Positions 2,031 through 47,260 of a DNA stretch of 64,000 bases are shown here, in pieces. The DNA comes from a virus: the IMG/VR virus record IMGVR_UViG_3300039412_000320. One strand, written 5' to 3'. The translations under genes were made by a program, and so were the position numbers. The notes under the pieces were generated by a model. The model searched no databases and was not told where the DNA came from. It saw nothing but the letters and a program-made list of their open reading frames with translations. How positions within the stretch are numbered: position 1 is the stretch's first letter; every line of letters starts with the position of its first letter.

Positions 2031-2120
2031 CCGGTTAAGGGAGAATCATGGGTGTAAAGTTTTCGGTCCGTTTTTTGTCATATTTGAACTATCTAAAACA
2101 CTTGTAGGGAGATAGTTCAA

Positions 2121-6427: not shown

Positions 6428-6449
6428 TAGCCCTCTTAATTGAGGGCTA
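6428..6449 (+). promoter_or_regulatory. Perfect 8-bp stem hairpin (TAGCCCTC-ttaatt-GAGGGCTA) whose 3' arm contains the SD (GAGGG) of the collagen-like gene
   Basis: Inverted repeat read directly; ATG of the next gene at 6454 is 7 nt after the stem; no T-run follows. Confidence 0.55.
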
Positions 6450-6453
6450 AGGC

Positions 6454-8748: not shown

Positions 8749-8762
8749 TGACAGGAAAAATA

Positions 8763-8786
8763 AACTTTCTAAACCTTTTATAGGGG
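8763..8786 (+). promoter_or_regulatory. Class A upstream motif AACTTTCTAAACCTTTTATAGGGG (representative instance)
   Basis: Near-identical 22-25-mers end 8-10 nt before the ATG of many genes (see findings for the full list). Confidence 0.5.
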
Positions 8787-8793
8787 AAAGTTT

Positions 8794-9672
8794 ATGTTTA
8801 TCTATTTAATTGTCAACCGAGAGACTGGTAAATACTACATTGGTCAGCACAAGGGGAAAGACTTAAAAAAGTACTTTCAAACCAAGTTATCGGATGCTAA
8901 ACATAATCGGGGAGGAAAGTCTCACCTATATGCTTCTATGCGGAAATATCCCTTACCTTCCTCTTGGTCTATACATGCCCTCCGCTCCGATATCCAGACA
9001 AAAGAAGAGCTTGACCAAACCGAAAAAGATTTCATTAGGTTCCTGCGGTCACAGGACCCAGAATACGGTTATAACATCTGTCGTGGAGGGGAAGGACATA
9101 CCGGACCGCTTTCTCAAGAATCCGTCAAAAAAATATCGGCTTCTCTTAAAAAGTTATGGGGTGGTTCCAAGGGTAAAGAACTCCGAAGAATAAGCGGGGA
9201 AGCATCTGACAAAAGATGGGCGCAACCGGGAAAAAAGGAACGGGCATCAGAAACAATGAGGGAAATCTGGCAGCAGCTAAAACACAGAGAACATGTTTTA
9301 GGTAAACTCAGAAACTACTGGTCAGGGATATCCGATAGTAAAAAGGCTGAAATCAGCAGTAGAATTTCTGCTACCTTGATGGGTCACTTCGTATCCGAAA
9401 AATCCCGAGTTAAAATGTCTTTAGCTCTTAAGGGAAAGCCTAGTTGGAATAAAGATAAAAATTTATCTAGGGAAACAAAGAACAAAGTATCCGTCTCGAT
9501 AACCAAACTTTGGGAAGACCCGCTATATAGGGAGCACATGGTTATAGCCGCTTCTCATCCTAAGCCATATCTTAGAAAGAGATTTTGTAAACATGGACAT
9601 GATACAAATGTTTGTGGAAGATACCCTAATGGCAACTGTCGAGGCTGCCATTTGAGATTACCTCATCTTTAG
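8794..9672 (+). CDS. GIY-YIG homing endonuclease (paralog family A) with NUMOD repeats and C-terminal Cys/His cluster
   Basis: 'MFIYLIVNRETGKYYIGQHKG...YGYNICRGGEG'; C-terminus 'CKHGHDTNVCGRYPNGNCRGCH'. Confidence 0.8.
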   Translation: MFIYLIVNRETGKYYIGQHKGKDLKKYFQTKLSDAKHNRGGKSHLYASMRKYPLPSSWSIHALRSDIQTKEELDQTEKDFIRFLRSQDPEYGYNICRGGEGHTGPLSQESVKKISASLKKLWGGSKGKELRRISGEASDKRWAQPGKKERASETMREIWQQLKHREHVLGKLRNYWSGISDSKKAEISSRISATLMGHFVSEKSRVKMSLALKGKPSWNKDKNLSRETKNKVSVSITKLWEDPLYREHMVIAASHPKPYLRKRFCKHGHDTNVCGRYPNGNCRGCHLRLPHL

Positions 9673-9687
9673 AGGGTATTATATCCT

Positions 9688-10389
9688 ATGGAGTTCACTA
9701 TTTCCAGTCCGCTCAAAGTCGAAGTTGATACCGTCATCCCCTCCATGGATTTCAAGGAGGCGTTGCCGGGGCTTATCGCCTCGGGGAAGAAGTTCGACCG
9801 TCAGACTCTCCAGAAGATTCCCTACTGCCAACTCCACCTCTGCTGCATCGGTCCAGCCGGATTAGCCGCCTGCTCCCCGAGACTGGTCTTCAAGGAGAAG
9901 GAGCGCCGGTTGAGCCGGTACATCTCCTCCGCCCCGGAGGAGCTTGCCGCCAGTGAGCGCTGGATGAAGACCGAGGGCATGTACAGAGACGTAATGGCGG
10001 AGGTCGCCGCAAAGTCCGCCCCCTCGTGGGATACCCTCAAGCCCCGGCAGAAGGTCGTTGCCAAGCTATTCTGCCTCTACAACCACATAGACGACCCCGA
10101 GGAGAGGGTGGTGGAAGCCGTAGTGCTTCTCCGGGAGGCGGCGGGCAAGGGTATCGACCCCATGCTTTGCTCTGAGTGTTGCTCCCGACTGGTCAACATC
10201 ACCCGGCGTTATCTGGGCATCCAGATTGAGGAAAAGGACAAAATTGGTGCCTCGGAGTTCTGGGAGGGGATTTACCAGACCATGGAATCCGTTTTGGACG
10301 TTTTACCCAAGGAGGAACAGCTAGTTCTGGTGCGGGAAAGGATTAGGGGTTATTCATGTACTTCAGACTGCTTCCGCAGTTGTTTTTAA
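9688..10389 (+). CDS. hypothetical protein (C-terminal segment weakly sigma region-4-like)
   Basis: ORF directly preceded by 'GGTATTATATCCT' with no SD (leaderless-type arrangement); 'LPKEEQLVLVRERIRGYS' is helix-turn-helix-like. Confidence 0.45.
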   Translation: MEFTISSPLKVEVDTVIPSMDFKEALPGLIASGKKFDRQTLQKIPYCQLHLCCIGPAGLAACSPRLVFKEKERRLSRYISSAPEELAASERWMKTEGMYRDVMAEVAAKSAPSWDTLKPRQKVVAKLFCLYNHIDDPEERVVEAVVLLREAAGKGIDPMLCSECCSRLVNITRRYLGIQIEEKDKIGASEFWEGIYQTMESVLDVLPKEEQLVLVRERIRGYSCTSDCFRSCF

Positions 10390-10448: not shown

Positions 10449-11435
10449 ATGGGAAGTAAGGGTACTTGTGGTGTCTATGTAATATGGGTAAAGGACGATA
10501 ACGGAAATGAAAAGCCCTATATAGGCAGCAGCAAATGGATGGAACATAGAAGGAAACAACATCTTCAAGCACTAGCTGTTGGAAAGCACCGTAACTATAA
10601 ACTTCGGCGGGCGTGGCGGGAGTACGGACCGCAAGCGTTTAGGTTTGAGGTCCTGTTTCCTTGTGAAGAGAATGAGAGATTTGTCTGGGAAGAGTTGATG
10701 ATTCGCTTCCTTGATTCTTTTCACAATGGATACAATCTAACCCCCAATGTCATGGACCTGTCAGTGATTCCCCGCTGCAACAGACCCCTGTCTGACAAAA
10801 CCAAGAAAAAATTATCTGAATTGGCATATAAAAAGTATGAGGCCGCCTCGGAGCATGAAAAGACATCTAAGTCGTTAAAGGAGTTCTGGGGTAACGCAGA
10901 AAACCGAGAATGTCTGTTAGCACCGTACCGTACTCCCGAATATAGGGCCAAGTGTAGTTGTCTTACCACCTTGTCTTGGCAGGATGCGGTCATAAGGACA
11001 CGAAGAACGGACGGTCTCAAGAAAGTTATGGCTACGACAGCTTACCGCCATAATCTTTCAGCTTCCTTGACGGGAAAGAAGAAATCGGCACAACACGCCG
11101 AGAATATAGCATTGGGGGCCAAGAAAAAATATAGAAACCCTGCGGAGAGGAAAAAAACCAGCGACTCCCTCCATACTCCCGATGCGCACGCCAAGCTATC
11201 CGAGAAATCCTTTGTGGCTTGGCAAAACCCGATTTATAGAAACCACCTAAGCGAATGCCGTCGTCTCCAATGGCTTAAACCGGGCGTGCGGGAAACAATG
11301 GGGGAAAAAATAGCGGCTGGTTTGGCCAAGCCCGGAGTACTTGAAAAACGAAACCAAAAAATCAGTGAAGGATTAAAGCGGGCGTGGGCGAGAAAAAAAC
11401 TTCTAAGGGTTAAAAGTATAGAAAACTCCCCATGA
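10449..11435 (+). CDS. GIY-YIG homing endonuclease (I-TevI/Seg-like) with NUMOD repeats
   Basis: 'GVYVIWV...YIGSS...RRKQH...FEVLF...GYN'; a class A-like motif lies at 10416-10440. Confidence 0.8.
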   Translation: MGSKGTCGVYVIWVKDDNGNEKPYIGSSKWMEHRRKQHLQALAVGKHRNYKLRRAWREYGPQAFRFEVLFPCEENERFVWEELMIRFLDSFHNGYNLTPNVMDLSVIPRCNRPLSDKTKKKLSELAYKKYEAASEHEKTSKSLKEFWGNAENRECLLAPYRTPEYRAKCSCLTTLSWQDAVIRTRRTDGLKKVMATTAYRHNLSASLTGKKKSAQHAENIALGAKKKYRNPAERKKTSDSLHTPDAHAKLSEKSFVAWQNPIYRNHLSECRRLQWLKPGVRETMGEKIAAGLAKPGVLEKRNQKISEGLKRAWARKKLLRVKSIENSP

Positions 11436-11463
11436 AATCAAATTTAGGGCGTATTATACTTGT

Positions 11464-13281
11464 ATGGGCGACCCTTCTATTGTCATTGAGCAGAATAAGG
11501 AAAGAAGTCTTCCGTTCAAGGAACTCAATACAGAGGCATCCCCTCAAATCCGGGACCACTTCCCCTTTCCGACCATCCGGGCATCGCAGGAGGTAGCTCT
11601 TCAGGTGATAGAAAGGGCTATCAAGGAAGGCAAGAAATACATCATAATGGAACTCCCGTGCGGGGTCGGGAAATCCGGGATTAGTGTTGCGGCTGGCTCC
11701 CTTGCCAAGACCTTCAAAACGCCAGCAGGATACCAGCAGGGGGCATACGTGCTTTCCCCGCAAAAGGTCCTCACAGAACAGTATGTTAATGACTTCGGTG
11801 ATATGGGCCTTGTTGAGCTTAAAGGAAAGGCCAACTACACCTGCCCCGGATATACTTGGGAAGAGACGGGCGAGCTTATGAACTGCGAGGACGCCGCTTT
11901 TAACTACGAAGAGCAGCACAAGGAGGTAGGGGGATGCGGGGGATATAAGCCCGCCAAAGAGGCATTTGTCAACAGTCCACTCGGAGTCACCAACTTTGCC
12001 TATTACCTAAGCGAGACAGCCCACGCCAGTCAGCTTAAGCCCCGTACCATGTTAATTTTAGACGAAGCTCATAATACAGAACAGCACATTCTCTCCCTTG
12101 CCAGTATTGAGATAACCCGATATCGCTGTGAGGAAGCAAGTCTTGATTTTAGCTCCGTACCCTTTATCACGCCCGATGCCGTGGGCATAGGAGAAGCCCT
12201 TGACTGGCTTAACCAGACATTCCGTCCTGCCGCTACAGAAGCCATCCAAAGACTCAGCTTTAACGCCGAGGAACGCCGGGATATGGGAATGCAGAAGGAA
12301 GCTTCAAAGCTTAAGCGGCGGGCAAGCGGCATGGAGAGATTCATCGGACAGCTTGACTTGTTTCTTAAGTCGGAGAACCGCAAGGATTGGATGGTATGGT
12401 CGGAGTCGGAAATCGAGAGGTGCCCCCAGTGCTGTGTGAAGCAAAAATACTCAGGGAAGAAGGAGTGCTGGAAGTGCCACAGCAGGCTCCCCCTGACCCC
12501 GGCAAAGATGATTATCAAGCCACTGACGGCTACCTTGTTCGCCGAGCCGGCCTTGTTCAGCAAGGCGGACAAGGTTATAATGTTGTCCGCCACTATCCTT
12601 GACTTCAATACTTTTTTGCGTAACCTTGGAATCAACCGAAATGACGCTGTATGCGTGGCGGTCCCGAGTGAGTTCCCGGTATGCAACCGCCCCATTTACT
12701 ACCGCCCAGTAGGGAACATGAACTACGGAAACATTGAGGCAACTCTTCCCAAGATGGCGGAGGAAGTGGGTAGGATAATGCGGAAGTACCCCAACAACAA
12801 GGGTATCGTGCATTGCGTGAGCTTCCGAGTGACTAATTACCTTATAAAGTACTTGACAGAAGGAGGGCTTGGCGGACGCATCCTTACCCATTCGGGAGAA
12901 GATACTGGGTCAAGGGAAAGGGTGGTGGAGGAGCATATTGCTTCGTCTTCTCCCTCAGTACTCTTTAGCCCAAGTCTGTCAGAGGGGCTGGATCTCAAGG
13001 AGGACCTGTCAAGGTTCCAGGTTATAGTCAAGATTCCCTATAAGGCATTAGACGTGTATGTCAAGGCACGGATGGCGCTTGATATGGACTGGTATAACCT
13101 ACAGGCGGCAATCTCGCTTGTCCAAGCGACGGGAAGGTCGGTAAGGTCGATGACTGATAGGGCAGACACCTACATCCTTGATTCCGGGTTTGAATCATTC
13201 ATAAAGCGAGCGGGGCATATGCTGCCAGAATGGTGGGTGGAGGCAGTAAAATTTCCCGGTGAATATACGATTGATTGGTAG
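11464..13281 (+). CDS. Rad3/XPD/DinG-family DEAH-box DNA helicase
   Basis: 'RASQ', Walker A 'ELPCGVGKSG', 'LILDEAHN', CxxC...CxxC insert and motif VI 'QATGRSVRS'. Confidence 0.75.
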   Translation: MGDPSIVIEQNKERSLPFKELNTEASPQIRDHFPFPTIRASQEVALQVIERAIKEGKKYIIMELPCGVGKSGISVAAGSLAKTFKTPAGYQQGAYVLSPQKVLTEQYVNDFGDMGLVELKGKANYTCPGYTWEETGELMNCEDAAFNYEEQHKEVGGCGGYKPAKEAFVNSPLGVTNFAYYLSETAHASQLKPRTMLILDEAHNTEQHILSLASIEITRYRCEEASLDFSSVPFITPDAVGIGEALDWLNQTFRPAATEAIQRLSFNAEERRDMGMQKEASKLKRRASGMERFIGQLDLFLKSENRKDWMVWSESEIERCPQCCVKQKYSGKKECWKCHSRLPLTPAKMIIKPLTATLFAEPALFSKADKVIMLSATILDFNTFLRNLGINRNDAVCVAVPSEFPVCNRPIYYRPVGNMNYGNIEATLPKMAEEVGRIMRKYPNNKGIVHCVSFRVTNYLIKYLTEGGLGGRILTHSGEDTGSRERVVEEHIASSSPSVLFSPSLSEGLDLKEDLSRFQVIVKIPYKALDVYVKARMALDMDWYNLQAAISLVQATGRSVRSMTDRADTYILDSGFESFIKRAGHMLPEWWVEAVKFPGEYTIDW

Positions 13282-15215: not shown

Positions 15216-15236
15216 TGGATTTTGGTATTATATAAT

Positions 15237-15968
15237 ATGATAAAAAGCTCAAATACAGCTAATGGCACCCCTCCAGTTTTAGTTCCTCTTTCCACGTTAG
15301 AAGACTTAAAGAGAGTACTCTTCGTGCAAAAAACTATTGCACAGGAATGTCGCCGGGAGTTGATAGCGACCGCCACGGCGAAAGAGATTGCCACGGGCGA
15401 GGTATCCGCCCCGGAGGAAATGCGCCGGATAATCAAGGCGCAGACCGCCCTGCTGGAGAAGTACGCCAAATATCCCACCCTGTCGGAGTTCATGTTCCAC
15501 CCCGACCTTGCCGGGTCCACCCGGTGGGGAGCGACCTTTGGGGTGACTATCCTCGTCCGGGCGCTCATCCTTGACCCCATCAAAGCAGCTATGCAGGCGT
15601 TTGCTCCCTTCATGCGGAGTATCTACCTTCTGCTCATTAAAGAGTTAGACAACCCTACCCACGAGTATCTTATCGAGCCATTGGAAGAGAACATCAAGTT
15701 CCGGGTAACTATGGGCGAGAACGGTGAGGAAATCACCGACGAGCGCAGCACTCTGCTCACCCGTAAGCTCCTTTACCAAGTCACGGAAAGCCTGTTGATG
15801 ATAAGTGCCCAGTACGGCATCATTGGAGCCACGCCGGGAGGGTTCCAGATAACTGATATGGGTCGCCGGGTTTTACTCCATCTTGTTGACTCTTCAGTTT
15901 TTTTAGAAGAACTTGTGGAGGCCCACAAACGTTTTCAATCTGAAAAGCCGAAACTTAATTTTATATGA
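15237..15968 (+). CDS. hypothetical protein
   Basis: ATG directly after 'GGTATTATATAAT' (class B -10-like, no SD). Confidence 0.45.
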   Translation: MIKSSNTANGTPPVLVPLSTLEDLKRVLFVQKTIAQECRRELIATATAKEIATGEVSAPEEMRRIIKAQTALLEKYAKYPTLSEFMFHPDLAGSTRWGATFGVTILVRALILDPIKAAMQAFAPFMRSIYLLLIKELDNPTHEYLIEPLEENIKFRVTMGENGEEITDERSTLLTRKLLYQVTESLLMISAQYGIIGATPGGFQITDMGRRVLLHLVDSSVFLEELVEAHKRFQSEKPKLNFI

Positions 15969-16012
15969 CGACTGGAAAAATGAACTTTCTAAATCCTTTA
16001 TAGGGATTATTC

Positions 16013-16780
16013 ATGTTTATTTATCTTATCGTCAACCATGTGACCGGCAAATACTATGTCGGTCAGCATAAGGGGAATAACCTTAAAAAGTATCTTCAAA
16101 CAAAAATGTCTTCTGCTAGGTATCGTCACAGGGGAAACTCTCATCTTTTCAATTCAATGCGTAAGTATCCTCAGTCTACTTTATGGTCCATCCATGCTCT
16201 TCGTTCCGATATACAGACTCGTGAGGAGCTTGACGAGACCGAAAAAGACTTCATCCGGTTCTTACGGTCGCAAAACCCTGAGTACGGCTACAACATATGC
16301 CGGGGAGGGGAGGGACGAACTGGACCACATTCTGAAATCTCTCGCAAGAAGACCTCTAATTCAATTAAAAAAGCATGGATGATACCAGAAATACGAGAGA
16401 GACTTATAAGTAATAGACGAGGTAAGACCCACAATCGAGGATGTCTTATTCCATATGAAGCACGGATTCGGGGTGGAAAAATTGGAGGAAGTATAAAAAG
16501 TGATGTAAAAATCCAGCATTGTAAAAATATCGCCCATTTAGGGGGGATTATTGGGGGACTTGCTACTAATGCTACCACTAATGGTCGTAAAAGTAGAGGG
16601 GGTCGTGCCAGCGTTCTTAAAATGACTACAGAAACAAGGATTCTCGCAGGTACCAATGGAGGTAAAGTGACCGCCAGTAAACCGGGATTTTTGATTGAAA
16701 TAGGACGGATTGCTCGGTGTAAACACTGGCAAATAGGCCGTGGTAAGCCGTGTATATGTGGTCATCACAACAGCCTTTAG
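16013..16780 (+). CDS. GIY-YIG homing endonuclease (paralog family A) with C-terminal C..W.I.RGKPC.CG.H module
   Basis: 'MFIYLIVNHVTGKYYVGQHKG'; 'CKHWQIGRGKPCICGHH'; class A motif at 15983-16005. Confidence 0.8.
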   Translation: MFIYLIVNHVTGKYYVGQHKGNNLKKYLQTKMSSARYRHRGNSHLFNSMRKYPQSTLWSIHALRSDIQTREELDETEKDFIRFLRSQNPEYGYNICRGGEGRTGPHSEISRKKTSNSIKKAWMIPEIRERLISNRRGKTHNRGCLIPYEARIRGGKIGGSIKSDVKIQHCKNIAHLGGIIGGLATNATTNGRKSRGGRASVLKMTTETRILAGTNGGKVTASKPGFLIEIGRIARCKHWQIGRGKPCICGHHNSL

Positions 16781-16791: not shown

Positions 16792-16950
16792 ATGAAAGTT
16801 TTCCCCGCTCACGGTCCCCTCGTCGTCCTGCTGGTCCTTCTCCTCATGCTGACCGCTGACGACTTCATTTTTCCCTCCAGCACTGTCGTTGTATCTATAA
16901 TTGTTGTCTATGGTTTAATAAGATTCTTCCAGTGGCTCTGGAAGCTATAA
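16792..16950 (+). CDS. possible small hydrophobic membrane protein
   Basis: 52 aa with two hydrophobic stretches; no clear SD. Confidence 0.25.
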   Translation: MKVFPAHGPLVVLLVLLLMLTADDFIFPSSTVVVSIIVVYGLIRFFQWLWKL

Positions 16951-16973
16951 ATTTCTCCCAAAACGGCCATTTT

Positions 16974-16995
16974 CGTGGTATACTGTAGGTGGAAG
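16974..16995 (+). promoter_or_regulatory. Class B promoter-like motif CGTGGTATACTGTAGGTGGAAG (extended -10 TGGTATACT + SD-like)
   Basis: A near-identical copy lies at 17233-17255. Confidence 0.5.
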
Positions 16996-17014
16996 CTTGA
17001 CCCACGGGTCAAGT
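16996..17014. promoter_or_regulatory. Operator-like palindrome CTTGACCCACGGGTCAAG between the class B -10 and the SD of the next gene
   Basis: Read directly. Confidence 0.4.
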
Positions 17015-17225
17015 GGGGCAATTTAAGCAAGGGGACAATATGATTACAGCCAAGCGTTTGAAGAAGGCCGGTTTCTCCTATGTGGGAAGCCAGAAATGTG
17101 GCATGTACAAGAAGGTCTATTGGGTGGACCCGGTGGACCACGAGGTTATTCCTCAGTATCTCGCCGTCCTTTACCTGCAAGAGCGCAATCGAGCCGCCAA
17201 GCTCCAGAAAAACCTTCAAAAATGA
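17013..17225 (+). CDS. hypothetical small basic protein (alternative start 17040)
   Basis: SD 'GGGGA' before ATG 17040. Confidence 0.45.
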   Translation: MGQFKQGDNMITAKRLKKAGFSYVGSQKCGMYKKVYWVDPVDHEVIPQYLAVLYLQERNRAAKLQKNLQK

Positions 17226-17259
17226 CCGGTCACGTGGTATACTGAGAGTGGAGGGAAAC

Positions 17260-17508
17260 ATGGCAAATGCAATCACCCTTTACATTCCATCTGACGCCCT
17301 ACGGCTACCTGATAACGCCCAATGGGGCAACCGCTTCGAGATTCATTCCTCAAGCTCCGACCGTTGCTATACCATCGCACAGAACAAAGACAAGCGCCAT
17401 TGGGGTTGCTCCCGCCCCGGATGGAAGCGCTGGAGACGTTGTCACCATCTCAAGGAACTCGGCATCCCCGGCAACGAAATTCCCTTCGAGGCAAAACTCC
17501 ATGCCTAA
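17260..17508 (+). CDS. small Cys/His-rich protein, translationally coupled to the J-domain gene
   Basis: ATG 6 nt after 'GGAGGG'; 'CYTIAQNKDKRHWGCSRPGWKRWRRCHH'; its stop TAA overlaps the ATG of the next gene (ATGCCTAA). Confidence 0.5.
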   Translation: MANAITLYIPSDALRLPDNAQWGNRFEIHSSSSDRCYTIAQNKDKRHWGCSRPGWKRWRRCHHLKELGIPGNEIPFEAKLHA

Positions 17509-17854
17509 AGCCAAGAAAGGCTTTTTGGACGGCTATAAGACCTACGACCCCGACGCCGAGGGCTACGGCTCCCCGGCGCAGTGGCGGGCGGCGTTTGCCC
17601 ACCGGATGTCGCAGGAAGAGGCCGAGGAAGTGTTCGTGGGCAAGCAGTACGGCCCGTGGGCGGTCCTTGGCGTTCCCGAGGGAAGCCCATGGAGGGTCGT
17701 CAAGAGCGCCTTCCGCCGTCTGTCGATGGCTTGCCATCCTGACCGCTGCATCCTCAATAACATGACCAAGGCCGAGGCGGACGAAAAGTTCAAGGAACTG
17801 ACCGCTGCTTTCACCATAATTGACAACGAGTATACTCGAAAGGGGTTAAAATGA
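17501..17854 (+). CDS. J-domain (DnaJ-like) protein
   Basis: C-terminal 'WAVLGVPEGSPWRVVKSAFRRLSMACHPDR...KAEADEKFKELTAAFTII' carries the HPD motif and helices II/III. The track's longer ORF from 17267 has a low-complexity out-of-frame-looking N-terminus. Confidence 0.6.
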   Translation: MPKAKKGFLDGYKTYDPDAEGYGSPAQWRAAFAHRMSQEEAEEVFVGKQYGPWAVLGVPEGSPWRVVKSAFRRLSMACHPDRCILNNMTKAEADEKFKELTAAFTIIDNEYTRKGLK

Positions 17855-18154: not shown

Positions 18155-19321
18155 ATGGAATTATCTCCGACTCCATATACCCCCGAAACACAAATTCCCG
18201 GAACGCAGCTTATATACCTGCGTGAAAGCAATAGAAGGTCCAATGCGGGAAAACGGATGGTATGGGTACGATGCATCCTTCACGGAAATGAGTTCGAGGT
18301 CGTCTTGTCTCACCTAAAGTCCGGGCACACAAAGGGTTGCTTTCAAAATGAAAAGTGTATTCTTCATGATTTCATTCCGGGAAACCTATACCCCGGAACA
18401 GAGATAACATGTGTTCGAGTGGTGGGAACAAGGAAAGGGCAGACCATCGTTGCTGTTTGTTGCAAACACAAAGAATTTGAGGTTGCTTTGAAAGACCTTA
18501 AAAGCGGAAACACGAAAAGGGGATGTTGGGAGTGCGGGGTAGCCAGCCGGGCGGACAAGCAACGTAAATCGTCGGAAAGCATCCTTGTCGAATTAAAAAG
18601 TAGGTGGGGCAGTGAAACCTATGACTACTCCAAGGCTATATTTTACGGAACCCATGTCCCCGTCACCGTCATCTGCCATAAAACCGATAATAACGGGGTG
18701 GAACACGGAGGGTGGTCTGTTACTCCTCACAATCACATGAAGACCGGTTGTCCCAAATGCGGGGATGATGTCGGGGCTGAAAAGCGTAAATTCACTGAAA
18801 AAGAGTTTAAGGATAAGGTCAAGGAAGTTTGGGGAGACCAATACGACCTAAGTGAGCTTGACTACATCACTGCTCAAGGGTGGATTTACCCCATTTGTCC
18901 TAAATCAGGGCACGGGAAGTGGATGACGAGGGCGTACAGCTTTTTACAAGGGCACGGGTGCCCTGTATGCAGTGAGTCTAAGGGAGAAAGGGCTATACGT
19001 GAATATCTTGAGAAGATGGGGATTGCTTTTTTCCAAGAACAAACTTTTGGTGGTTGCCGAAACCACCTGCCCTTACACTTTGACTTTTTCCTCCCGGATA
19101 TTAAGACTCTGATTGAATTTCAAGGGGTGCATCATTATTGTCCGACTCGATTTGGTGGAATAAATCAGCAAGTAGCGGAAGAAAACTTTTCCAAACAACA
19201 GGAGCGAGATGTACTTAAACGACAGTGGGTAGCTGACAACGGTTTCCGCTTGATTGAAATTCCACATACAATTCAATTTGATTCCATTCCTTCTTATCTT
19301 GAGAAACTTCTAGTCATCTAG
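18155..19321 (+). CDS. putative nuclease (PD-(D/E)XK/Vsr-like C-terminal domain) with tandem N-terminal Zn-ribbon/'KSGxTK' modules; homing-endonuclease-like
   Basis: Duplicated 'GNEFEVVLSHLKSGHTKGC' / 'HKEFEVALKDLKSGNTKRGCWEC'; 'GCPKCG', 'GHGCPVCS'; C-terminus 'EYLEKMGIAFFQEQTF...FDFFLPDIKTLIEFQGVHHY'. Confidence 0.45.
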   Translation: MELSPTPYTPETQIPGTQLIYLRESNRRSNAGKRMVWVRCILHGNEFEVVLSHLKSGHTKGCFQNEKCILHDFIPGNLYPGTEITCVRVVGTRKGQTIVAVCCKHKEFEVALKDLKSGNTKRGCWECGVASRADKQRKSSESILVELKSRWGSETYDYSKAIFYGTHVPVTVICHKTDNNGVEHGGWSVTPHNHMKTGCPKCGDDVGAEKRKFTEKEFKDKVKEVWGDQYDLSELDYITAQGWIYPICPKSGHGKWMTRAYSFLQGHGCPVCSESKGERAIREYLEKMGIAFFQEQTFGGCRNHLPLHFDFFLPDIKTLIEFQGVHHYCPTRFGGINQQVAEENFSKQQERDVLKRQWVADNGFRLIEIPHTIQFDSIPSYLEKLLVI

Positions 19322-19406
19322 TATTATCCAGTATGGACACGCAGTTTAGGCCGGGCATAACCCCATCCGAACATCTTCACAAATCAATCCTATCTGATTC
19401 ATTTAT

Positions 19407-20219
19407 ATGGTTCTAGTTCATCTATACCGGTATCCCCATCCGACTATCCCCAACCAGTGGCTTTATGTTGGTCAGGGAGTAAATCGGGATAAACAACACC
19501 GGTCCGGGGCATCATCCTTTGGTCGCCGATTTAGGAAGTTGTTTCCAGACACTCACCTCCCCGAGCCTGTTAGGTGGACTGAACCCGCCTCAAACCATCT
19601 TGAGGCCAATGAAGCAGAGACTATTGCTATGTTTAGATATCATACTTGGCGAGGGTATCAAGGAGGGATGAATCTGACATTACCCGGCACAAAAGATTAT
19701 GAACACTTAGGGAAAATTGGAGGAGCAGTAGTAGGTCGTATAACTAAGGAAAACGGTACTGGACTTTTCCGTCTTACATCGGAACAATTAAGCCAAGCGG
19801 GGCGTAAAGGTGGACTTATTGGAATTCGCAATATGCCCCGAGAAGCGAAGGTTCGTGGTGGTAAAACTTCGGGTCCAGATAACTTAAAAAAGATGACAAA
19901 AGAAGCAAAAATACGAGGTTGTTACCTTGGTGGTAAATCTTCCGGTTCAATTTCAGGTAAACGATGTAAAGAAAACGGTCATCTAGCAAAAATCTGTCAC
20001 CTTGGGGGGTTAATTCGGGGTCCTATTCAGGGTAGAAAGAATGTAGAAAGCGGACTTCTATCCCGTATTTGTGCGGATGGAGGAAGGATTAGTGGTAGAA
20101 AAATGGCGAAGGTTCCCGGCTATATGTCAGGACTTGGTCGTATTAGTGCTTGCTTACGTTGGAGGATTCCTCGTGGCAGACCTTGTACTTGTGGAAAACA
20201 CTTGCCGCCTGAAACCTAG
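19407..20219 (+). CDS. degenerate GIY-YIG-like protein sharing the C-terminal GG-repeat and RGRPCTCGKH module with the GIY-YIG paralogs
   Basis: 'LYRY...WLYVGQG...YQGGMN'; 'CLRWRIPRGRPCTCGKH'. Confidence 0.55.
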   Translation: MVLVHLYRYPHPTIPNQWLYVGQGVNRDKQHRSGASSFGRRFRKLFPDTHLPEPVRWTEPASNHLEANEAETIAMFRYHTWRGYQGGMNLTLPGTKDYEHLGKIGGAVVGRITKENGTGLFRLTSEQLSQAGRKGGLIGIRNMPREAKVRGGKTSGPDNLKKMTKEAKIRGCYLGGKSSGSISGKRCKENGHLAKICHLGGLIRGPIQGRKNVESGLLSRICADGGRISGRKMAKVPGYMSGLGRISACLRWRIPRGRPCTCGKHLPPET

Positions 20220-20230
20220 TATTATTCCTT

Positions 20231-21007
20231 ATGGGTGTTCGATTCAGGCCGGGAGTATCAATTAGTGGGTATCCTCCCATCACACAACTTCTCCTTAAAA
20301 AATCATCCAAACCCTTCAACATTCTTGTCGGTGAGGACCATTTTCAAATACGTTTCGCCGAACACATCCTTGACCTAAAACACCGTATTGTAGAGAGCGT
20401 TGTCGATGCGGACCTCTTAACGGGAGAACCCTGTCTTTTGTGTGTCACGACCATCCGGGTCGTGGACATTTCCGAAAAAGTCAAAGACAAAACAGCCATT
20501 TGGTCTATCGGACCTTTGGAAAAAGGGAGTCCGGGAGCAATGGCAATCGTGAAATATGCTGTTTCTATTTTGAAAAAGGAAGTGCCTGACAAAGATACCT
20601 TAAAGAAGATTGCTGATGCTCTTACCCAAGAGGGCATCGAAGACATCCCTATTGCCATCTGGAACGCCGTGGGGTTACTCTCAGGACCGGCCCCCGGCGA
20701 GTATGTACGCTGGCTGGAGCCGTGGGAAAGCCATCGAAGCTGGCTCCGCCCGGAGGTAGACCCCGGATACCGGCTAAACACCCTTTTCCGGGACCTGTCG
20801 GCTTATGCCTTCATTAGTGCAGGCGAGGAGGAGAGCCTCAAGAAGGCCGGGCTATTCCTGTCGCCCTCTAAGCTTAAGTACCTGTCAAACCTTAAGCTGG
20901 ATTCCGTGCGGGTGCATAATACGCTCCGGGAATTGTCCCAATGGCGTATCAAACGCCCGGACCCATATCCTTGTGTATTGAAGATTTCGGCCATATGGCA
21001 ACCGTGA
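20231..21007 (+). CDS. hypothetical protein
   Basis: ATG directly after 'TAGTATTATTCCTT'. Confidence 0.5.
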   Translation: MGVRFRPGVSISGYPPITQLLLKKSSKPFNILVGEDHFQIRFAEHILDLKHRIVESVVDADLLTGEPCLLCVTTIRVVDISEKVKDKTAIWSIGPLEKGSPGAMAIVKYAVSILKKEVPDKDTLKKIADALTQEGIEDIPIAIWNAVGLLSGPAPGEYVRWLEPWESHRSWLRPEVDPGYRLNTLFRDLSAYAFISAGEEESLKKAGLFLSPSKLKYLSNLKLDSVRVHNTLRELSQWRIKRPDPYPCVLKISAIWQP

Positions 21008-21046
21008 AAAAACAACTTTCTATCCCTTAATCAGGAGGAAGTTGTT

Positions 21047-21742
21047 ATGTTCATTTATCTGATTGTTAATCATGATATCGGCAAATATTATGCCGGTCAA
21101 CATAAGGGGAATAATCTTAAAAAGTATCTTCAACAGAAATTTAACCATGCTCAAAGGGGGATTTCTGGCCAATCTTACCTTTATAATTCAATGCGGGCAC
21201 ACCCAGACTCCAAGGTCTGGTCCATTCATGCCCTTCGTTCGGATATCCAAACAAAAGAAGAGCTTAACGAAACCGAGAGGGATTTTATCAAATTTCTGCG
21301 GTCACAAGACCCCGAGTATGGGTACAACATTTGTCGGGGCGGAGAAGGATTCACCGGACCGCATACGGAGGAGACTCGAAAAAGGATATCTCACATTGTT
21401 AAAAATGCATGGAAGACCCCGGAAAAGCGAAAAAATATGCAGTGTAATGGTAATCATCAGTCTCGTGAAGTTAGGGTTCGTAACGGTCAAAAATTAGGTA
21501 AGTGGGGTGTGGAAACCGGGCACCTATTAAAGATTTCTTCACTTGGTTCTCTCGCACAACCTCGTGAGGACAAAGTGAGGGCAGGAAAAATTGGTATTCA
21601 GAGAGGACTTTTGAAACGGACCAAAGAACAAATGACCCTTGATGGTAAGAAAGGGGGATTGTTGGGAGGAAAAATCTCTTGTTGCAAACGTTGGAATATT
21701 GACCGTGGGAAACCGTGTGTTTGTGGAAAGCACCTAAAATAG
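21047..21742 (+). CDS. GIY-YIG homing endonuclease (paralog family A)
   Basis: 'MFIYLIVNHDIGKYYAGQHKG'; 'CKRWNIDRGKPCVCGKH'; class A motif at 21014-21038. Confidence 0.8.
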   Translation: MFIYLIVNHDIGKYYAGQHKGNNLKKYLQQKFNHAQRGISGQSYLYNSMRAHPDSKVWSIHALRSDIQTKEELNETERDFIKFLRSQDPEYGYNICRGGEGFTGPHTEETRKRISHIVKNAWKTPEKRKNMQCNGNHQSREVRVRNGQKLGKWGVETGHLLKISSLGSLAQPREDKVRAGKIGIQRGLLKRTKEQMTLDGKKGGLLGGKISCCKRWNIDRGKPCVCGKHLK

Positions 21743-22140: not shown

Positions 22141-22224
22141 TGTTCCAAGAGCCGGTTCAGTGGCTTGGTAACTGAAAGCTTTCTTTACCAACTCAAATCG
22201 TTTAATCTTTAGGAGGATTACAAC

Positions 22225-23199
22225 ATGAAGCAGTTCGCAGATGATGAATTGACCGACTTAGTACCACCCACTTCCCCCGTTCAACAAGCAGCAGCACCTC
22301 CCCCTCCCGCCGCTCCTGCTCCGCAGGCTCCGCCGCCCCCCGTGGCAACGGCAGCGCCAGCGCCCGTATTCACTGCACCAGCACCGGCACCTGTATTCAC
22401 CGCTCCCCTTCAAACCGCCAAAGTAAGTTCCATTGAAGACCTAGACCTTCCCGGCACCGCAGGGACAGCAATCGCCGCAGCGCCCACCTTTGCCGCCACA
22501 CCCGGCACGGAGTTGGTCGGACGGGCTATTGACTTTGACAACGCCGAACCGTTGAAGACGGGAGATGGATTGAGCCGCATCCGCCCGGCGAAGGGCAGTG
22601 GGAAGCCGTCTCGTTTCGCTTTAATCGGACCCCCGCCTTACGGCCCCGGTATCGCTCCTCGTGCCGCCCGCAGTCACTACGTTCCCACCAAAGATGGCAA
22701 GCGGAATTGCATTTGCCTCGCCGATGGCACTAATGACGTTGGACTCTGCTGCACCAAGTTGCAGGAAGAGGGCCGGACGCACATCATCCACCTCGCCCTC
22801 GAATACACCAACTGCAACCCCACCAACGGCAACTACCCGAAGGGGTACACTGGTCCAATCGAATGGAGGATTGGTTTCGTTGACCTCTCCCCCTCTCAGT
22901 TTAACACGTTGAAGGACAAGCCGCAAGAGGGTAAGTCCGTCTACGATTACGACTACGTGATGGTCATGAACGGCAACCGCTACGACTTCAACATCAAGTC
23001 GCCGGTCGCCCGCTGGAAGCTTGACCCCGAAGTGGTCAAGGCCGTTACCGAAGCGGTTCAACCCTTTGTCCGGGACGGCGGCGTGAAGCTTGCCAAGCGC
23101 CTCGGTACGAAGAAGTCTATTCTCGAATGGAAAGCGCTCCTCTCCGGTGTCGCCGTGGGAGCCGCTGAGGCCAGTCTGGACGATGTGGAAAGCATTTAA
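22225..23199 (+). CDS. hypothetical protein with Pro/Ala-rich N-terminus (possible virion protein)
   Basis: Strong SD AGGAGG; PPPP/APAP low-complexity region then a globular domain. Confidence 0.55.
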   Translation: MKQFADDELTDLVPPTSPVQQAAAPPPPAAPAPQAPPPPVATAAPAPVFTAPAPAPVFTAPLQTAKVSSIEDLDLPGTAGTAIAAAPTFAATPGTELVGRAIDFDNAEPLKTGDGLSRIRPAKGSGKPSRFALIGPPPYGPGIAPRAARSHYVPTKDGKRNCICLADGTNDVGLCCTKLQEEGRTHIIHLALEYTNCNPTNGNYPKGYTGPIEWRIGFVDLSPSQFNTLKDKPQEGKSVYDYDYVMVMNGNRYDFNIKSPVARWKLDPEVVKAVTEAVQPFVRDGGVKLAKRLGTKKSILEWKALLSGVAVGAAEASLDDVESI

Positions 23200-24695: not shown

Positions 24696-25410
24696 GGCCC
24701 GTCATTTGGTTGGGAAAACATTTGGGTTGTGGTTTGTCATATCTTACAAAGGTCGGGGAGTTTATCAATGCCGATGTAGATGTGGAACTGAGAAACCGGT
24801 ATACGGTTCCAATCTTACTCAAAAGAAAACTGGGAGTTGCGGGTGTGTACCTTTTCCCACCAGAAAAGCATGGAATTTCAAAGACCTTTCCGGTAAAAGG
24901 TTTGGTTTTTTGGAGGTACAAGAACTAGACCATGTTGAAAAAAACCGGGTTTTTTGGAAGTGCCTGTGTGTTTGTGGAAAGATTTTACCTGTAAGTACCA
25001 ATAATTTATCCCGCACTACTAGTTGTGGGTGTCGGCGCTATGCCAATCTTTTAGAACCCAAAGAGTTTCTGAGTGGACGGGTATACCGTGAGTATAAGAC
25101 CAGTGCTAAGTCTAGGGGATTGAAATGGGGGCTAGAGAAAGAATTATTCTTGAGTTTAATTTTTCAACCCTGCCATTATTGTGGAGCACCCCCCAGCAAT
25201 GAAGCGGTTACCCGTCGTCTTTACAATAATGGAAAGCTGCCCTACAATGGGATTGATAGGAAAGATATCCATAAGGGATATATTCCGGGCAATGTAGTTC
25301 CTTGTTGTCGTATATGTAATTGGGCAAAACAACAACTTTCCTATGAAGAGTTTTTGAATCATATAAGAAAAATGGCAGTTCATCTCAGTATTCTATCACA
25401 GGAGGAATAA
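24646..25410 (+). CDS. HNH homing endonuclease
   Basis: 'CHYCGAPPS...YNGIDRKDIHKGYIPGNVVPCCRICNWAK'; class A motif at 24623-24645. Confidence 0.8.
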   Translation: MQAQRNENSMCVSTKSKARHLVGKTFGLWFVISYKGRGVYQCRCRCGTEKPVYGSNLTQKKTGSCGCVPFPTRKAWNFKDLSGKRFGFLEVQELDHVEKNRVFWKCLCVCGKILPVSTNNLSRTTSCGCRRYANLLEPKEFLSGRVYREYKTSAKSRGLKWGLEKELFLSLIFQPCHYCGAPPSNEAVTRRLYNNGKLPYNGIDRKDIHKGYIPGNVVPCCRICNWAKQQLSYEEFLNHIRKMAVHLSILSQEE

Positions 25411-26747
25411 TGGCAAAGGCAGCCGCAAAGAAGAAGAAGGAAAAGGAACTCAATTTTGAAATGCCGACTGGCAGTCCCCGGACTTGGACGGTGGAACAGC
25501 GGCGTAATGCCCTTGCTTACTTGCGCAAGGATACGAAGTCCGACCATCGTATCTACGGCAAGGACTTTCAGGAAATCCTTGTTCCCTATGGTCACTTCGT
25601 CTTTGACAAGGTTCTACGGCTCGGCGGTATCGCCCGAGGCGGACGCATTACGCAGATACACGGCAATGAGGGCGCTGGCAAGACCACCACTGCCTTTGTA
25701 AACGCCGCCAATTACCAGCAAGCAACCGGTGAACCCATCGCTATCTTCGAGTACGAACCGGCCATTAGCGCCCAGTACGCTTACGCTCTCGGTGTTGACC
25801 CCGACCTCTGTTTCTTCGAGCAGCCGTCCAACTTGCAAGAGTCCATCAAGCGGCATATTCAGCTTCTCACCAAATATGGTATCCGCTACTTCGTGGATGA
25901 CTCCATCCCGTTCATGCAGATGAAGGTGGAGCTTAAGGATATTGAAAGCGGCAAAGCATTCCGGGCTAACTACGGAAGCCATGCTAAGGGCATCACCACG
26001 TTCTACAAGTTTCTCACTCCTCACCTTATGGAGCAGGATGCCCACCTGACCATCATTAACCAGACTCGTGCCCGTATGGACGACGATGCGGAGAACGCTT
26101 CCCACTGGAGTTACACTAACCGGGAATACAGCCTGCCGGGCGGATATATGGCGAGGTTTGCTCCCAGCGTGATGCTGGAACTCATTCTGGAAACGGAAAT
26201 CAAGCCGTGGAGTTGGGATAAGATGCCGGACAAAAAAGAACAGTGGCTTCTCATCCAGCCCATGGGTGAAGTGCTCAAAAACTACCCGACCGCTAACAAG
26301 GTCCGGGTTCGCTCCCTCAAGAACAAGGTGACGGGCGGCGGCTACCGGGAAGCCTTCGTCTACGTCAGGCCCAACTTCGGCATTGACGAGAACATGAGCA
26401 TCCGGGAGCTTGCCTGCGGGTATGGCTTCATTGAGTACGACAAAAAGAAGTGGTTTGTCGGCAAGTCCGCCGACGACGCCATCATCACCTATGCCAGCAA
26501 AACAGAGCTTGTCGAAGACCTCGTTATCAAGCAAAACCCGGAGGTTCTCGGGAAGCTCAAGGGCATGGTTTTGGATGCCGTGGAGCACGATGAAACCGAG
26601 CGCTTCAAGGGTGAAGGTCTCAGTGAAGCGGAAAAGGCATTCCTCGAAGAGCCAGCGGGGAGCTACCCCGATGAGGAAGATTTTGGTGAAGTCCCCACCG
26701 CAGAATCTCTTGAAAATGCAGTAACAGAGATAGACGAACTTAAGTGA
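25410..26747 (+). CDS. RecA/UvsX-like recombinase
   Basis: 'LGGIARGGRITQIHGNEGAGKTTTAF' is a RecA-type Walker A; SD GGAGG. Confidence 0.7.
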   Translation: MAKAAAKKKKEKELNFEMPTGSPRTWTVEQRRNALAYLRKDTKSDHRIYGKDFQEILVPYGHFVFDKVLRLGGIARGGRITQIHGNEGAGKTTTAFVNAANYQQATGEPIAIFEYEPAISAQYAYALGVDPDLCFFEQPSNLQESIKRHIQLLTKYGIRYFVDDSIPFMQMKVELKDIESGKAFRANYGSHAKGITTFYKFLTPHLMEQDAHLTIINQTRARMDDDAENASHWSYTNREYSLPGGYMARFAPSVMLELILETEIKPWSWDKMPDKKEQWLLIQPMGEVLKNYPTANKVRVRSLKNKVTGGGYREAFVYVRPNFGIDENMSIRELACGYGFIEYDKKKWFVGKSADDAIITYASKTELVEDLVIKQNPEVLGKLKGMVLDAVEHDETERFKGEGLSEAEKAFLEEPAGSYPDEEDFGEVPTAESLENAVTEIDELK

Positions 26748-26753: not shown

Positions 26754-27059
26754 GTGGCTCTTTTTATTTTACTGTTTTTGGTCCTTGTAGTTCTTAATAT
26801 CTCTGATGGGATAACTACCTATATGGGACTTAAGAAAACGGAAAATGAGGAGGTAAACCCCATTGCATCTTGGTTGATGTGTAAAATCGGCAGTATTCCT
26901 GGAATTATTGTGGTGAAGGTCTTAGCCTTAAGCACCATTGCGGCTGGGATTTTCATTGTCGGTGTGAGGGGTGCCCCAGGGGTGGATATCACACTTTCTA
27001 TCCTGATAGCAGTTTACATTTGGGTTGTCGTTCATAACATCAAGGTTATTTACAAATGA
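26754..27059 (+). CDS. small integral membrane protein (3 predicted TM helices)
   Basis: Hydrophobic segments; stop/start overlap (ATGA) with the next gene. Confidence 0.5.
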   Translation: MALFILLFLVLVVLNISDGITTYMGLKKTENEEVNPIASWLMCKIGSIPGIIVVKVLALSTIAAGIFIVGVRGAPGVDITLSILIAVYIWVVVHNIKVIYK

Positions 27060-29925: not shown

Positions 29926-29964
29926 AGGTCCAGCCGGAATTAGTATTATAGTGAGGAGGATTAC

Positions 29965-30261
29965 ATGCCCGACATCCAAGAACAGTTGCGCACTGCTCAA
30001 GCAAGAGTGAAAACCTTGGCAGGCAAACGAGACCAGCTTAACCGGGAAGTGGGGGTTGAGGAGCAGAAGCTCAAGCAGGTCCATGATAACCTCCGGGCAC
30101 TTAACATCAGCAACCCCGAGCGTCTGTCGGTGGAGGAGCTTAAGAAGCTCGCCGAGGATACCCAGTTGGAGTTGGAAAAGAACCTGAGTAGCCTCATGGC
30201 CTCCCTTGAGAACGGTGAGTCTTTGCTCAAAGACTACGAACAATTTCAACAGGCACAGTAA
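29965..30261 (+). CDS. small coiled-coil protein
   Basis: Class B motif + SD GAGGAGG upstream; heptad-rich. Confidence 0.5.
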   Translation: MPDIQEQLRTAQARVKTLAGKRDQLNREVGVEEQKLKQVHDNLRALNISNPERLSVEELKKLAEDTQLELEKNLSSLMASLENGESLLKDYEQFQQAQ

Positions 30262-34654: not shown

Positions 34655-34690
34655 TAAACCACCTATCGTTCTCTTCTATAGGGGGAGACC

Positions 34691-35119
34691 ATGGGTAGAC
34701 TTCGATTATTCAATGATAAGGAAAAGTGGTGTTCCGCTTGTACATCATGGCTCCCATTGGATGCTTTTTCAAAATTGAAGAGAGAACCTTCCGGTAGAGC
34801 AACCTATTGTCGGCTCTGCAAAAAGAAAAAAAATCAAAAATGGGGGTATAAACATCAGAAAAAGTATACCCATAATCACCTCTATGGGATTACACTGGAA
34901 GAACGAGAAATCTTGTGGGAAAAACAAAATAGATGCTGCGGGATATGTAAAGAACCCATCCCCGTGCAAGGGAATAAAAGTCATTTAGACCATAACCACG
35001 ACACTGGAAAAGTTAGAGGACTTCTTTGCCCAACCTGCAATATGGGAATAGGTCTTTTAGGTGAAGGAAGGTTTCTTATTGCCGCTATCCAATACTTAGA
35101 GAAGGCAGAATGCACATGA
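34691..35119 (+). CDS. Endonuclease VII-family (T4 gp49-like) HNH nuclease
   Basis: 'HLDHNHDTGKVRGLLCPTCNMGIGLLGE'. Confidence 0.7.
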   Translation: MGRLRLFNDKEKWCSACTSWLPLDAFSKLKREPSGRATYCRLCKKKKNQKWGYKHQKKYTHNHLYGITLEEREILWEKQNRCCGICKEPIPVQGNKSHLDHNHDTGKVRGLLCPTCNMGIGLLGEGRFLIAAIQYLEKAECT

Positions 35120-47254: not shown

Positions 47255-47260
47255 GTTTTC

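Follow-up and report, generated by a model that had tools for sequence, protein, structure and literature searches.

A GTATTAT-type box abutting Shine–Dalgarno sequences and start codons as a probable promoter core in an uncultured jumbo phage and its relatives

A stretch of viral DNA of 64,000 nucleotides (nt), IMG/VR record IMGVR_UViG_3300039412_000320 (hereafter the window), was analysed for a recurrent motif, class B. It was found that a short box, G-T-A-T-(T/A)-N-(T), adjoins a Shine–Dalgarno sequence (SD) or a start codon at about one fifth of the genes in this phage and its relatives. The box is probably the −10-type core of a family of compact phage promoters whose mRNAs would have almost no leader. 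It would position RNA polymerase (RNAP) to start 6–7 nt downstream. A start on the first G of GGAGG would make the SD the 5′ end of the mRNA, and a start on the A of ATG would give a leaderless mRNA. Such boxes may head short transcription units of replication, recombination, and DNA-binding genes, and may persist as units when cassettes are inserted or deleted just behind them. The first-pass annotation of this DNA had proposed a promoter-like element with a minimal leader or none, and three features speak for that proposal: the fixed spacing to the SD or ATG, the conservation at orthologous genes, and the presence of boxes on either side of divergent gene pairs. Elements of this kind are already known, while this box family and its dual layout have not been described before for these soil phages. 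There is good support for a conserved element with a function.

Enrichment of the box

In the window, AGTATTAT occurs in 8 copies, all on the + strand, where 0.85 would be expected from shuffled sequences. The word GTATWMT occurs in 40 copies (17.4 expected), and two of the three 8-mers in greatest excess are GTATTATA and AGTATTAT. When the box is counted together with its neighbour on the + (coding) strand, box-spacer-SD is found 6 times versus 0.8 expected and box-spacer-ATG 5 times versus 0.44, an excess of 7- to 11-fold. These composite patterns are enriched more strongly in four loci of relatives described below (L009, L010, L011, and L014), and L012 and L013 have just one or two strict-pattern matches each. 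Thirteen of the 40 box words lie 0–25 nt 5′ of one of 67 curated starts, compared with 1.4% expected (p = 4.7e-15). Since the spacing statistics of the loose core GTA[TA]NNT were uninformative, curated sites were used instead.

Two strict-word matches are probably due to chance: that at 46007 (−) overlaps an ATG, and that at 55441 sits in the loop of a large intergenic hairpin. This hairpin (about 55417–55467, between convergent genes) has an 18-bp stem with GGTATTAT in its loop and is probably a bidirectional terminator.

Anatomy and subclasses

The alignment comprised 46 curated sites, taken from the window itself and from six loci of diverged relatives. In this window clade, the first four bases of the core, G, T, A, and T, are invariant; T or A follows, then A, C, or T, and the last base is T in 41 of the 46 sites. 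The invariant T, A, and T and the frequent last T fit the TAnnnT skeleton of a sigma70-family −10 element. In the same alignment, a G-rich block begins 6–7 nt past the box. The gap from box to SD is 5–6 nt in 22 of 30 SD-type sites (mode 6), and the gap from box to start codon is 5–6 nt in 10 of 11 SD-less sites. Gaps of this size are what a start 6–7 nt after a −10 element would need. All five 'orphan' sites of the window clade have a purine 5 nt past the box. Where transcription starts, like the action of the box on DNA as a promoter, is my inference from these sequences.

None of the spacers of the SD-less sites (atcct, acttgt, ataat, ccagt, tcctt, and others) includes an SD. Their start codons are ATG, rarely GTG, and agree with independent metagenome gene calls. 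The first-pass annotation had also recognised SD-less variants with a box before the ATG, and they do exist. However, it had placed the −10 box 1–3 nt from the ATG, whereas the conserved GTATTAT lies 5–6 nt away; a downstream, non-conserved TATA-like string was probably taken for the box. A gap of 1–3 nt would place the start site inside the open reading frame (ORF), whereas 5–6 nt is the distance that a leaderless start at the A of ATG requires. The site at 19318–19336 (ATG 19333) also belongs to the SD-less group. Replacement of the SD by pairing with 16S rRNA was considered and rejected, since GUAUUAU is unable to pair with CCUCC.

Class B had been treated as one class, but its two spellings turned out to be statistically separate subclasses. 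B1 is mostly (cgtg/cgat)GTATACT or GTATAAT, with G or T before the box and a sharply placed T-GGAGG behind it. It also has a distal element, A-rich...TC, about 21–23 nt upstream of the box, and an A-tract at −19 to −15. B2 is (t)cAGTATTAT(a), has no distal element, and holds most of the SD-less sites. The name extended −10, given to the motif earlier, suits only part of B1. G occupies position −14 in 17 of 24 B1 sites and T occupies −15 in 10 of 24, while B2 has A at −14 by definition.

The curated sites of the window are as follows. Lengths between elements are given in nt.

1955–1962, + strand: B2 box AGTATTAT, 'orphan', 86 nt 5′ of ATG 2048 (19-codon 5′ fragment of a glycosyltransferase gene)
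9675–9690, + strand: B2 box GGTATTAT, 5 nt (atcct), ATG 9688; no SD; 233-amino-acid (aa) gene
11416–11466, + strand: helicase promoter (candidate); distal GTATAGAAAACTCCCC (11416–11431), cGTATTAT (11450–11457), 6 nt, ATG 11464; no SD
15224–15239, + strand: box GGTATTAT, 5 nt (ataat), ATG 15237; no SD; 243-aa gene
16946–16995, + strand: B1 block; distal TATAAATTTCTCCC (16946–16959), cgtgGTATACT (16974–16984), 6 nt, GGAAG; 55 nt to ATG 17040
17233–17262, + strand: B1 cgtgGTATACT, 6 nt (gagagt), GGAGGG, 4 nt, ATG 17260; 82-aa gene
17829–17853, + strand: AGTATACT, 5 nt, GGGG, 5 nt, ATG 17851; within the 3′ end of a DnaJ-domain gene
19320–19335, + strand: B2 AGTATTAT, 5 nt (ccagt), ATG 19333; no SD; opens a frameshifted paralogue of the 20231 gene
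20218–20233, + strand: B2 AGTATTAT, 5 nt (tcctt), ATG 20231; no SD; 258-aa gene; box overlaps the preceding stop codon
21760–21789, + strand: B2 AGTATTAT, 7 nt, GGAAAGGAAG, ATG 21787; HU-like DNA-binding protein
25387–25412, + strand: B2 AGTATTCT, 6 nt, GGAGG, 4 nt, ATG 25410; UvsX/RecA-like recombinase
29942–29967, + strand: B2 AGTATTAT, 5 nt, GGAGG, 5 nt, ATG 29965; 98-aa gene; short hairpin ggaccttaaaggtcc ahead
40495–40521, + strand: B2 AGTATTAT, 5 nt, GGAGG, 6 nt, ATG 40519; 158-aa gene; GC-rich hairpin ahead
42912–42935, + strand: B2 AGTATTAT, 5 nt, GGAGG, 3 nt, ATG 42933; 394-aa NusG-like protein
47252–47279, − strand: B1 GGTATACT, 6 nt (gtaagt), GGAGGG, 5 nt, ATG 47254; DUF6011 protein; half of a divergent pair
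47311–47336, + strand: variant box GGTATTTATA, 4 nt, GGAGG, 4 nt, ATG 47334; other half of the divergent pair
52073–52080, + strand: B2 box AGTATTAT, 'orphan'; gene 52182–52913 inserted behind it
56915–56975, − strand: GGTATTAT (56975–56968) and, 38 nt downstream, GTATTAG-acatc-ATG (56929–56915); 5′ of a 459-aa gene (ATG 56906); tentative
58104–58112, − strand: candidate box GGGTATTAA at the 58.1-kb divergent junction, 33 nt 5′ of ATG 58070; tentative

Class B thus precedes helicase, UvsX/RecA-like, HU-like, and NusG-like genes as well as small genes of no known function. All 14 coordinates listed in the first-pass annotation carry the sequence given for them, and the 12-mer CGTGGTATACTG followed by GTGGA(A/G)G is present twice, about 260 bp apart, as had been described. 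Sites missed at that time are 11451 (helicase, SD-less), 21761 (HU-like), 17830 (a 93-aa gene), and 56974 (−). The spellings GTATTAG and GTATTAA at 56915–56929 (−) and 58104–58112 (−) are weaker and tentative. The gene at 19333–20219 is an apparent frameshifted paralogue of 20231–21007; the two share the N-terminus (M..FRPG) and the box-5 nt-ATG layout, and the frame shifts near 19407.

Conservation among relatives

The window is densely coding, mainly on the + strand. Its genes encode a family-A DNA polymerase, a Rad3/DinG-type helicase, an intein-bearing terminase, a portal protein, and collagen-like fibres. Proteins identical to those of the window are encoded on metagenomic contigs, some of which, in IMG/VR, measure 237 kb and 317 kb; the window is therefore part of an uncultured jumbo phage. 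A 6-kb piece of the window had no megablast match in the phage collection, where no near relative is present. The window helicase gave no match in IMG/VR, and a search with the NusG-like protein returned only 99%-identical contigs, which are useless for conservation. The syntenic relatives are L009–L011, with a helicase 55–59% identical, and L012–L014, with a NusG-like protein 62–74% identical. The closest cultured phage is Tunturiibacter phage Tunturi_5 (308.7 kb), which has an Acidobacteriota host; its helicase is 40% and its NusG-like protein 45% identical to those of the window (loci L015–L021). By this kinship, the host of the window phage may also belong to Acidobacteriota. A further locus, L023, comes from a 454-kb relative.

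Is the motif conserved in relatives, as expected for a functional element? A box was found at orthologous gene starts in eight diverged relatives. Those with a helicase 48–59% identical to that of the window keep it there while the flanking sequences have diverged. The helicase box is kept in the window, L009, L010, L011, L022, and L023. The layout behind it is box-6 nt-ATG in the window, L010, and L023, and box-6 nt-SD (GGAGG) in L009, L011, and L022. Such a change of layout behind a constant box would be expected if the box is fixed to the 5′ end of the RNA and not to the ribosome-binding site (RBS). In the 258-aa gene family (window, L009, L010, and L011), the only invariant block in the 80 nt upstream is AGTATTA(T/G), 5–6 nt, and the start codon. 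The start at ATG 9688 agrees with independent metagenome gene calls and has orthologues at L009 9215 (TATTAT-ctcct-ATG) and L011 9243 (TAATAT-attct-ATG). The layout at 17233 is identical at L009 16971, and the 17829 site is kept at L009 17564. The 21760 box has orthologues at L009 18747, L011 18063, and L022 19490. The NusG-like orthologue of L012 has AGTATTAA, 6 nt, and GAGGAG.

Divergent gene pairs must hold two promoters, so that one box per gene supports a promoter role. The back-to-back pair at 47261–47329, noticed already in the first-pass annotation, is present and has one box per gene and little else. The pair is kept in L012 and L013. The DUF6011 side has its orthologues at L012 14487 (−) and L013 13265 (−), each with the box GTATAAT, 6 nt, and GGAGGG. 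On the other side, the odd spelling GGTATTTAT is kept at L012 14521 and at L013 13299 and 9726, and L014 14267 has GTATTTT. Tunturi_5 also has a divergent pair, 44403 (−)/44478 (+), with one box per gene.

These pairs bear on a different explanation, in which the box is a signal for an endoribonuclease and a cut a few bases downstream frees mRNAs that start at the SD or AUG. Cleavage at a fixed site would be compatible with the geometry and with the conserved purine, and many B2 boxes lie at tight junctions where they overlap the upstream stop codon. Yet divergent genes could not do without promoters, and no element other than the boxes is conserved between them. Furthermore, the fixed-distance distal DNA element of B1 and of the Tunturi_5 sites would be left without a role, and no candidate nuclease was identified. 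Cleavage is thus quite an unlikely explanation.

Insertions and deletions directly behind a box account for three of the 'orphan' copies (16978, 52074, and 1955). In L009, the block corresponding to 16978 would drive two extra genes that are absent in the window; the breakpoint lies directly after the box and SD, which is why the box now stands so far from ATG 17040. Behind the 52074 box, the 243-aa gene 52182–52913 has no homologue in L012–L014. It lies between the box and 52877–53464, the homologue of the gene that the box abuts in L012 and L013. Behind the 1955 box, a GIY-YIG/NUMOD3 homing-endonuclease gene (2121–2768) appears to split the glycosyltransferase gene, while in L009 the orthologous box lies 35 nt 5′ of the intact glycosyltransferase ATG. 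The apparently interrupted glycosyltransferase/methyltransferase gene (2048–6417) consists of a 19-codon N-terminal piece (ATG 2048, MGVK...), the gene 2121–2768, and the rest of the ORF at 2749–6417; it is uninterrupted in L009, and no Rfam intron match was found at this gene. Scans of the window with Rfam (gathering thresholds) and for tRNAs gave no match, and thus its long 'orphan' leaders hold no known RNA.

It might be suspected from the three indels that the boxes are merely boundaries of recombination or cassettes, or operators of a phage regulator, with no promoter activity. GTATAC is indeed palindromic. However, GTATTAT is not, and an operator palindrome was rejected for this reason. 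A recombination site would need neither the strand bias nor the fixed spacing to the SD or ATG. I consider a role confined to boundaries or operators very improbable, and since the comparable cassettes of T4-like phages (PeSL, see below) are themselves promoters, it is not truly exclusive of a promoter.

The cultured relative Tunturi_5

In Tunturi_5, the top over-represented 8-mer is GGGTATTA (44 copies versus 1.2 expected). The 52 sites of this phage, called T1, are bipartite: TC(A/G)ATA(A/T)TC, about 21 nt, and tGG-GTATTA(G/C). A distal element at a fixed distance is expected for recognition at the DNA level. In 14 of the 52, a start codon (ATG in 11, GTG in one, and TTG in two) follows after 5 nt, or 4 nt in two cases, and in 18 an SD follows after about 5 nt. 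Sixteen sites have neither ATG nor SD; the base 5 nt past the box is G in 11 of these (p = 0.0013) and a purine in 14, consistent with a conserved purine at +1. T1 boxes mostly precede genes of replication and nucleotide metabolism (primase, dUTPase, helicases, dCMP deaminase, thymidylate synthase, and methyltransferase). One lies between tRNA genes, and others are 60–190 nt from any start. The publication on Tunturi_5 is silent on promoters, sigma factors, and leaderless mRNAs.

A third of the T1 boxes (33%), compared with 9.6% of random positions, occupy the loop of a perfect hairpin with a stem of 6 bp or more, in which the SD often forms the 3′ arm and a T-run follows. Examples are found at 45395–45440, 218480–218530, and 93640–93690 (−) of the Tunturi_5 record; they look like terminators with a promoter in the loop. 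In the window clade, box-spanning perfect stems of at least 6 bp are found at 15% of sites versus 9.8% of random positions.

The hairpins and the distal element raise the question of whether the distal element is the real −10 (RATAWT in Tunturi_5, at −28 to −23 from the box; TATAAA-type in B1). In that case, the box would lie in a 5′ untranslated region (5′UTR) of about 28 nt and act on the RNA as a hairpin loop, a protein site, or a translation signal. In its A and its last T, the distal hexamer matches a canonical −10, and it is followed by a G-rich discriminator and, at 7 nt, by purines; the frequency of T1 boxes in hairpin loops would agree with a role in RNA. On the other side, the box is conserved even though a distal element is lacking at about three quarters of the sites in the window clade, and box-spanning hairpins are not clearly enriched there. 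The distal hexamer, too, is without a −35. The box before a tRNA gene and those far from any start do not fit a translation signal, and the purine 5 nt after orphan boxes would be left unexplained. Placing the −10 at the distal element is therefore unlikely to be correct.

Which polymerase reads the box?

If the box is the −10-type core of a promoter, either the primary sigma factor of the host or a phage factor may recognise it. The first-pass annotation had called the motif an early promoter of the host sigma70 type. That assignment is unproven, since no −35 is conserved, the T-7 equivalent varies across the clade, and relatives encode sigma70-family proteins. Canonical sigma70 −35/−10 pairs are not enriched in the window (14 versus 15.6 expected). 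Recognition by sigma54 was rejected because the GG/GC spacing does not fit, and a −10 of the extracytoplasmic function (ECF) type was also considered and rejected.

In a variant of the promoter explanation, the reader of the box is a sigma factor encoded by the phage, or else host RNAP that a phage protein has retargeted, as in T4 middle or late transcription, and class B would be a phage-specific middle class. Several observations suggest this. The last box base is not conserved across the clade: 48 of 52 Tunturi_5 sites have G or C, and any of T, G, A, and C may stand there in L022 and L023. The distal element lies about 21–22 bp from the box, not 17, and is unlike TTGACA. Tunturi_5 gp211 (151918–152616 of the record) has a Sigma70_r2 domain (E = 2e-11) plus an r4 domain, and L023 has a gene (1–373) with Sigma70_r4. 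No RNAP subunit is annotated anywhere in Tunturi_5, so that phage factors would need the host core enzyme. On the other hand, the gene directly upstream of gp211 is gp212, and a T1 box stands 5 nt before the gp212 ATG. Since the upstream gene starts at a T1 box, gp211 seems to be a product of this class rather than its prerequisite. No sigma homologue was found by tblastn with gp3 and gp211 (self-matches only) in the 64-kb window or the fetched loci of close relatives, which are parts of genomes, and the box of the window clade is a good TAnnnT. Tunturi_5 gp3, annotated as a sigma factor, was not used, as it is unsupported by Pfam and does not resemble the window gene at the corresponding position. 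I regard a phage-specific reader as possible, though clearly less probable than not. As to the holoenzyme itself, the host primary sigma factor is placed slightly ahead of a phage sigma factor or phage-modified host RNAP.

Some points weigh against a −10-type promoter core. In the 46-site alignment, no information content was seen where a TTGACA-like −35 hexamer would lie, 17±1 bp upstream, and the Tunturi_5 sites have no −35 for either the box or the distal hexamer. The variant GGTATTTAT does not fit TAnnnT in register. T-7 is critical for primary sigma factors, and at the equivalent base Tunturi_5 has G or C while L022 and L023 vary. A promoter is not strictly needed at junctions within apparent operons, where many of the B2 boxes are found. 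The distal element of B1 and T1 (RATAWT/TATAAA) is itself −10-like and could be the true −10. Finally, an mRNA starting exactly with GGAGG has not been described as a class in the literature searched.

A wider proposal would cover an entire clade of soil jumbo phages (the window phage, Tunturi_5, and eight or more relatives from metagenomes). The clade would have its own promoter grammar, read by a phage-encoded or retargeted sigma factor, with the non-canonical core GTATTA and a distal element two helical turns upstream. All transcripts would start at the SD or AUG, with replication genes on leaderless or SD-first mRNAs. In Tunturi_5, promoters would be nested in the loops of terminator or SD-masking hairpins, and only local transcripts would be translated. 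Taken as a whole, this proposal is doubtful.

Comparison with known systems

In Deinococcus-Thermus, TANNNT lies 6–7 bp upstream of leaderless ORFs, as established experimentally in D. radiodurans (PMC12340547). In 'group C' genomes of GeneMarkS-2, a Pribnow box lies 6–8 nt from starts (PMC6028130). Leaderless genes were predicted in all three Acidobacteria genomes surveyed, at 9.7–19.4% of genes (PMC3160421). Class B resembles Deinococcus-Thermus and group C in having a TAnnnT box 5–6 nt before the start with no SD, in coexisting with SD-led genes, and in lacking a conserved −35. It differs in being found in a jumbo phage of a probable Acidobacteriota host, in its invariant G (GTAT...), in a last T that is not clade-wide, and in its second, SD-abutting layout.

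Like extended −10 or '−10-only' sigma70 promoters, class B has no −35, and B1 often has TG or G upstream (cgTGgTATACT) as well as A-rich tracts. Unlike them, B2 has A at −14, TG is present in less than half of B1, G at −13 is invariant, and the distal element lies at a non-canonical distance.

T4 late promoters (TATAAATA, read with gp55) are located inside RBS-sequestering hairpins of the genes e, soc, 49, and I-TevI. They share with class B a single box in the −10 region and the lack of a −35. The Tunturi_5 box is often in a hairpin loop whose 3′ arm is the SD, and, as in the T4 late hairpins, an RNA begun at the box would not contain the inhibitory 5′ arm. In contrast, the class B consensus is GTAT(T/A)(A/C)T and not TATAAATA, it serves replication genes rather than late ones, and the hairpin feature of the window clade is weak. 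No protein like gp55 was identified, though no search aimed at gp55 homologues was made. T4 middle promoters consist of a MotA box at −30 plus a sigma70 −10. B1 and T1 are similarly bipartite, with a −10-type box and a phage-specific upstream element instead of a −35, while their sequence and spacing differ and their distal element is centred at about −39.

T4-type phages also have PeSL cassettes, in which a sigma70 early promoter joined to a stem-loop flanks variable genes (PMC2839356, PMC4122927). As with PeSL, class B forms small repeated modules at which indels between related phages end; unlike PeSL, the modules of the window clade do not regularly include a stem-loop. Among jumbo phages, PhiKZ is the best mapped; it uses RNAPs of its own, and its transcripts have 5′UTRs of 31–40 nt and are never leaderless (PMC8244752). 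PhiKZ and the present phages are both jumbo phages with conserved AT-rich promoter motifs, but Tunturi_5, unlike PhiKZ, has no annotated RNAP subunits. Middle and late transcripts of phiYS40 are reportedly leaderless.

Class A and other observations

Class B had been distinguished from another motif, class A, and the two do differ in sequence and in the genes they precede. The short form of class A, CCYTTWATWGRGG, 5–8 nt, and ATG, is found before fibre, portal, endonuclease VII, and other genes. The long form, GAAAAAnnAACTTTCTAAA-CCTTTATAGGGG-N6–8-ATG, precedes four paralogous genes (MFIYL...), one with NUMOD3, which are probably homing endonucleases. The arms around TTWAT in class A are often complementary, e.g., CCCTC-TTAATT-GAGGG. 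The class A sites of the window are as follows.

8749–8796: class A long form
15970–16015: class A long form
21000–21049: class A long form
59610–59654: class A long form
6433–6456: class A short form
22205–22227: class A short form
34673–34693: class A short form
35770–35794: class A short form
42135–42158: class A short form
58070–58095, − strand: class A short form

In Tunturi_5, the class-A-like sequence YTTT(A)TAGGGGA precedes most structural genes, where T1 boxes are rare. Judging from gene content only, class B may be early or middle and class A late.

A second promoter-like family of about 30 copies was seen in Tunturi_5: AAAGTCATCTTTGG-N~13-TGTAGGTTGA, with TAGGTT 6 nt before the ATG, which is also a leaderless-type layout. 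Examples are at 18140–18200 of L015 and at 3540–3592, 4740–4790, and 16000–16051 of L016. At L015 18134–18200, it stands in tandem behind a T1 box.

In the window, the large terminase gene (27056–29326) contains an intein with Hint and LAGLIDADG homing-endonuclease domains. Two endonuclease VII paralogues (34691–35119 and 38365–38955) lie less than 4 kb apart. The 8-mers CCTGAGTA and TACTCAGG, which are reverse complements of each other, are each 13-fold over-represented, with 5 copies per strand.

Implications

If the start sites are as predicted, the boxes would give a map of transcription units for a large and essentially unstudied clade of Acidobacteriota jumbo phages, in which about one fifth of the genes would be independently transcribed. 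The start codons of the helicase and other SD-less genes become predictable, and start-codon prediction is improved. The prediction is directly testable, as the same element is the top over-represented word in a cultured pair, Tunturi_5 and Tunturiibacter psychrotolerans. Acidobacteriota genetics is short of tools according to the Tunturi authors (PMC11924767), and the boxes are candidate compact promoters for this purpose. If the proposed promoter role is true, a phage would systematically make leaderless or SD-first mRNAs, which bears on translation initiation and on the insulation of gene cassettes.

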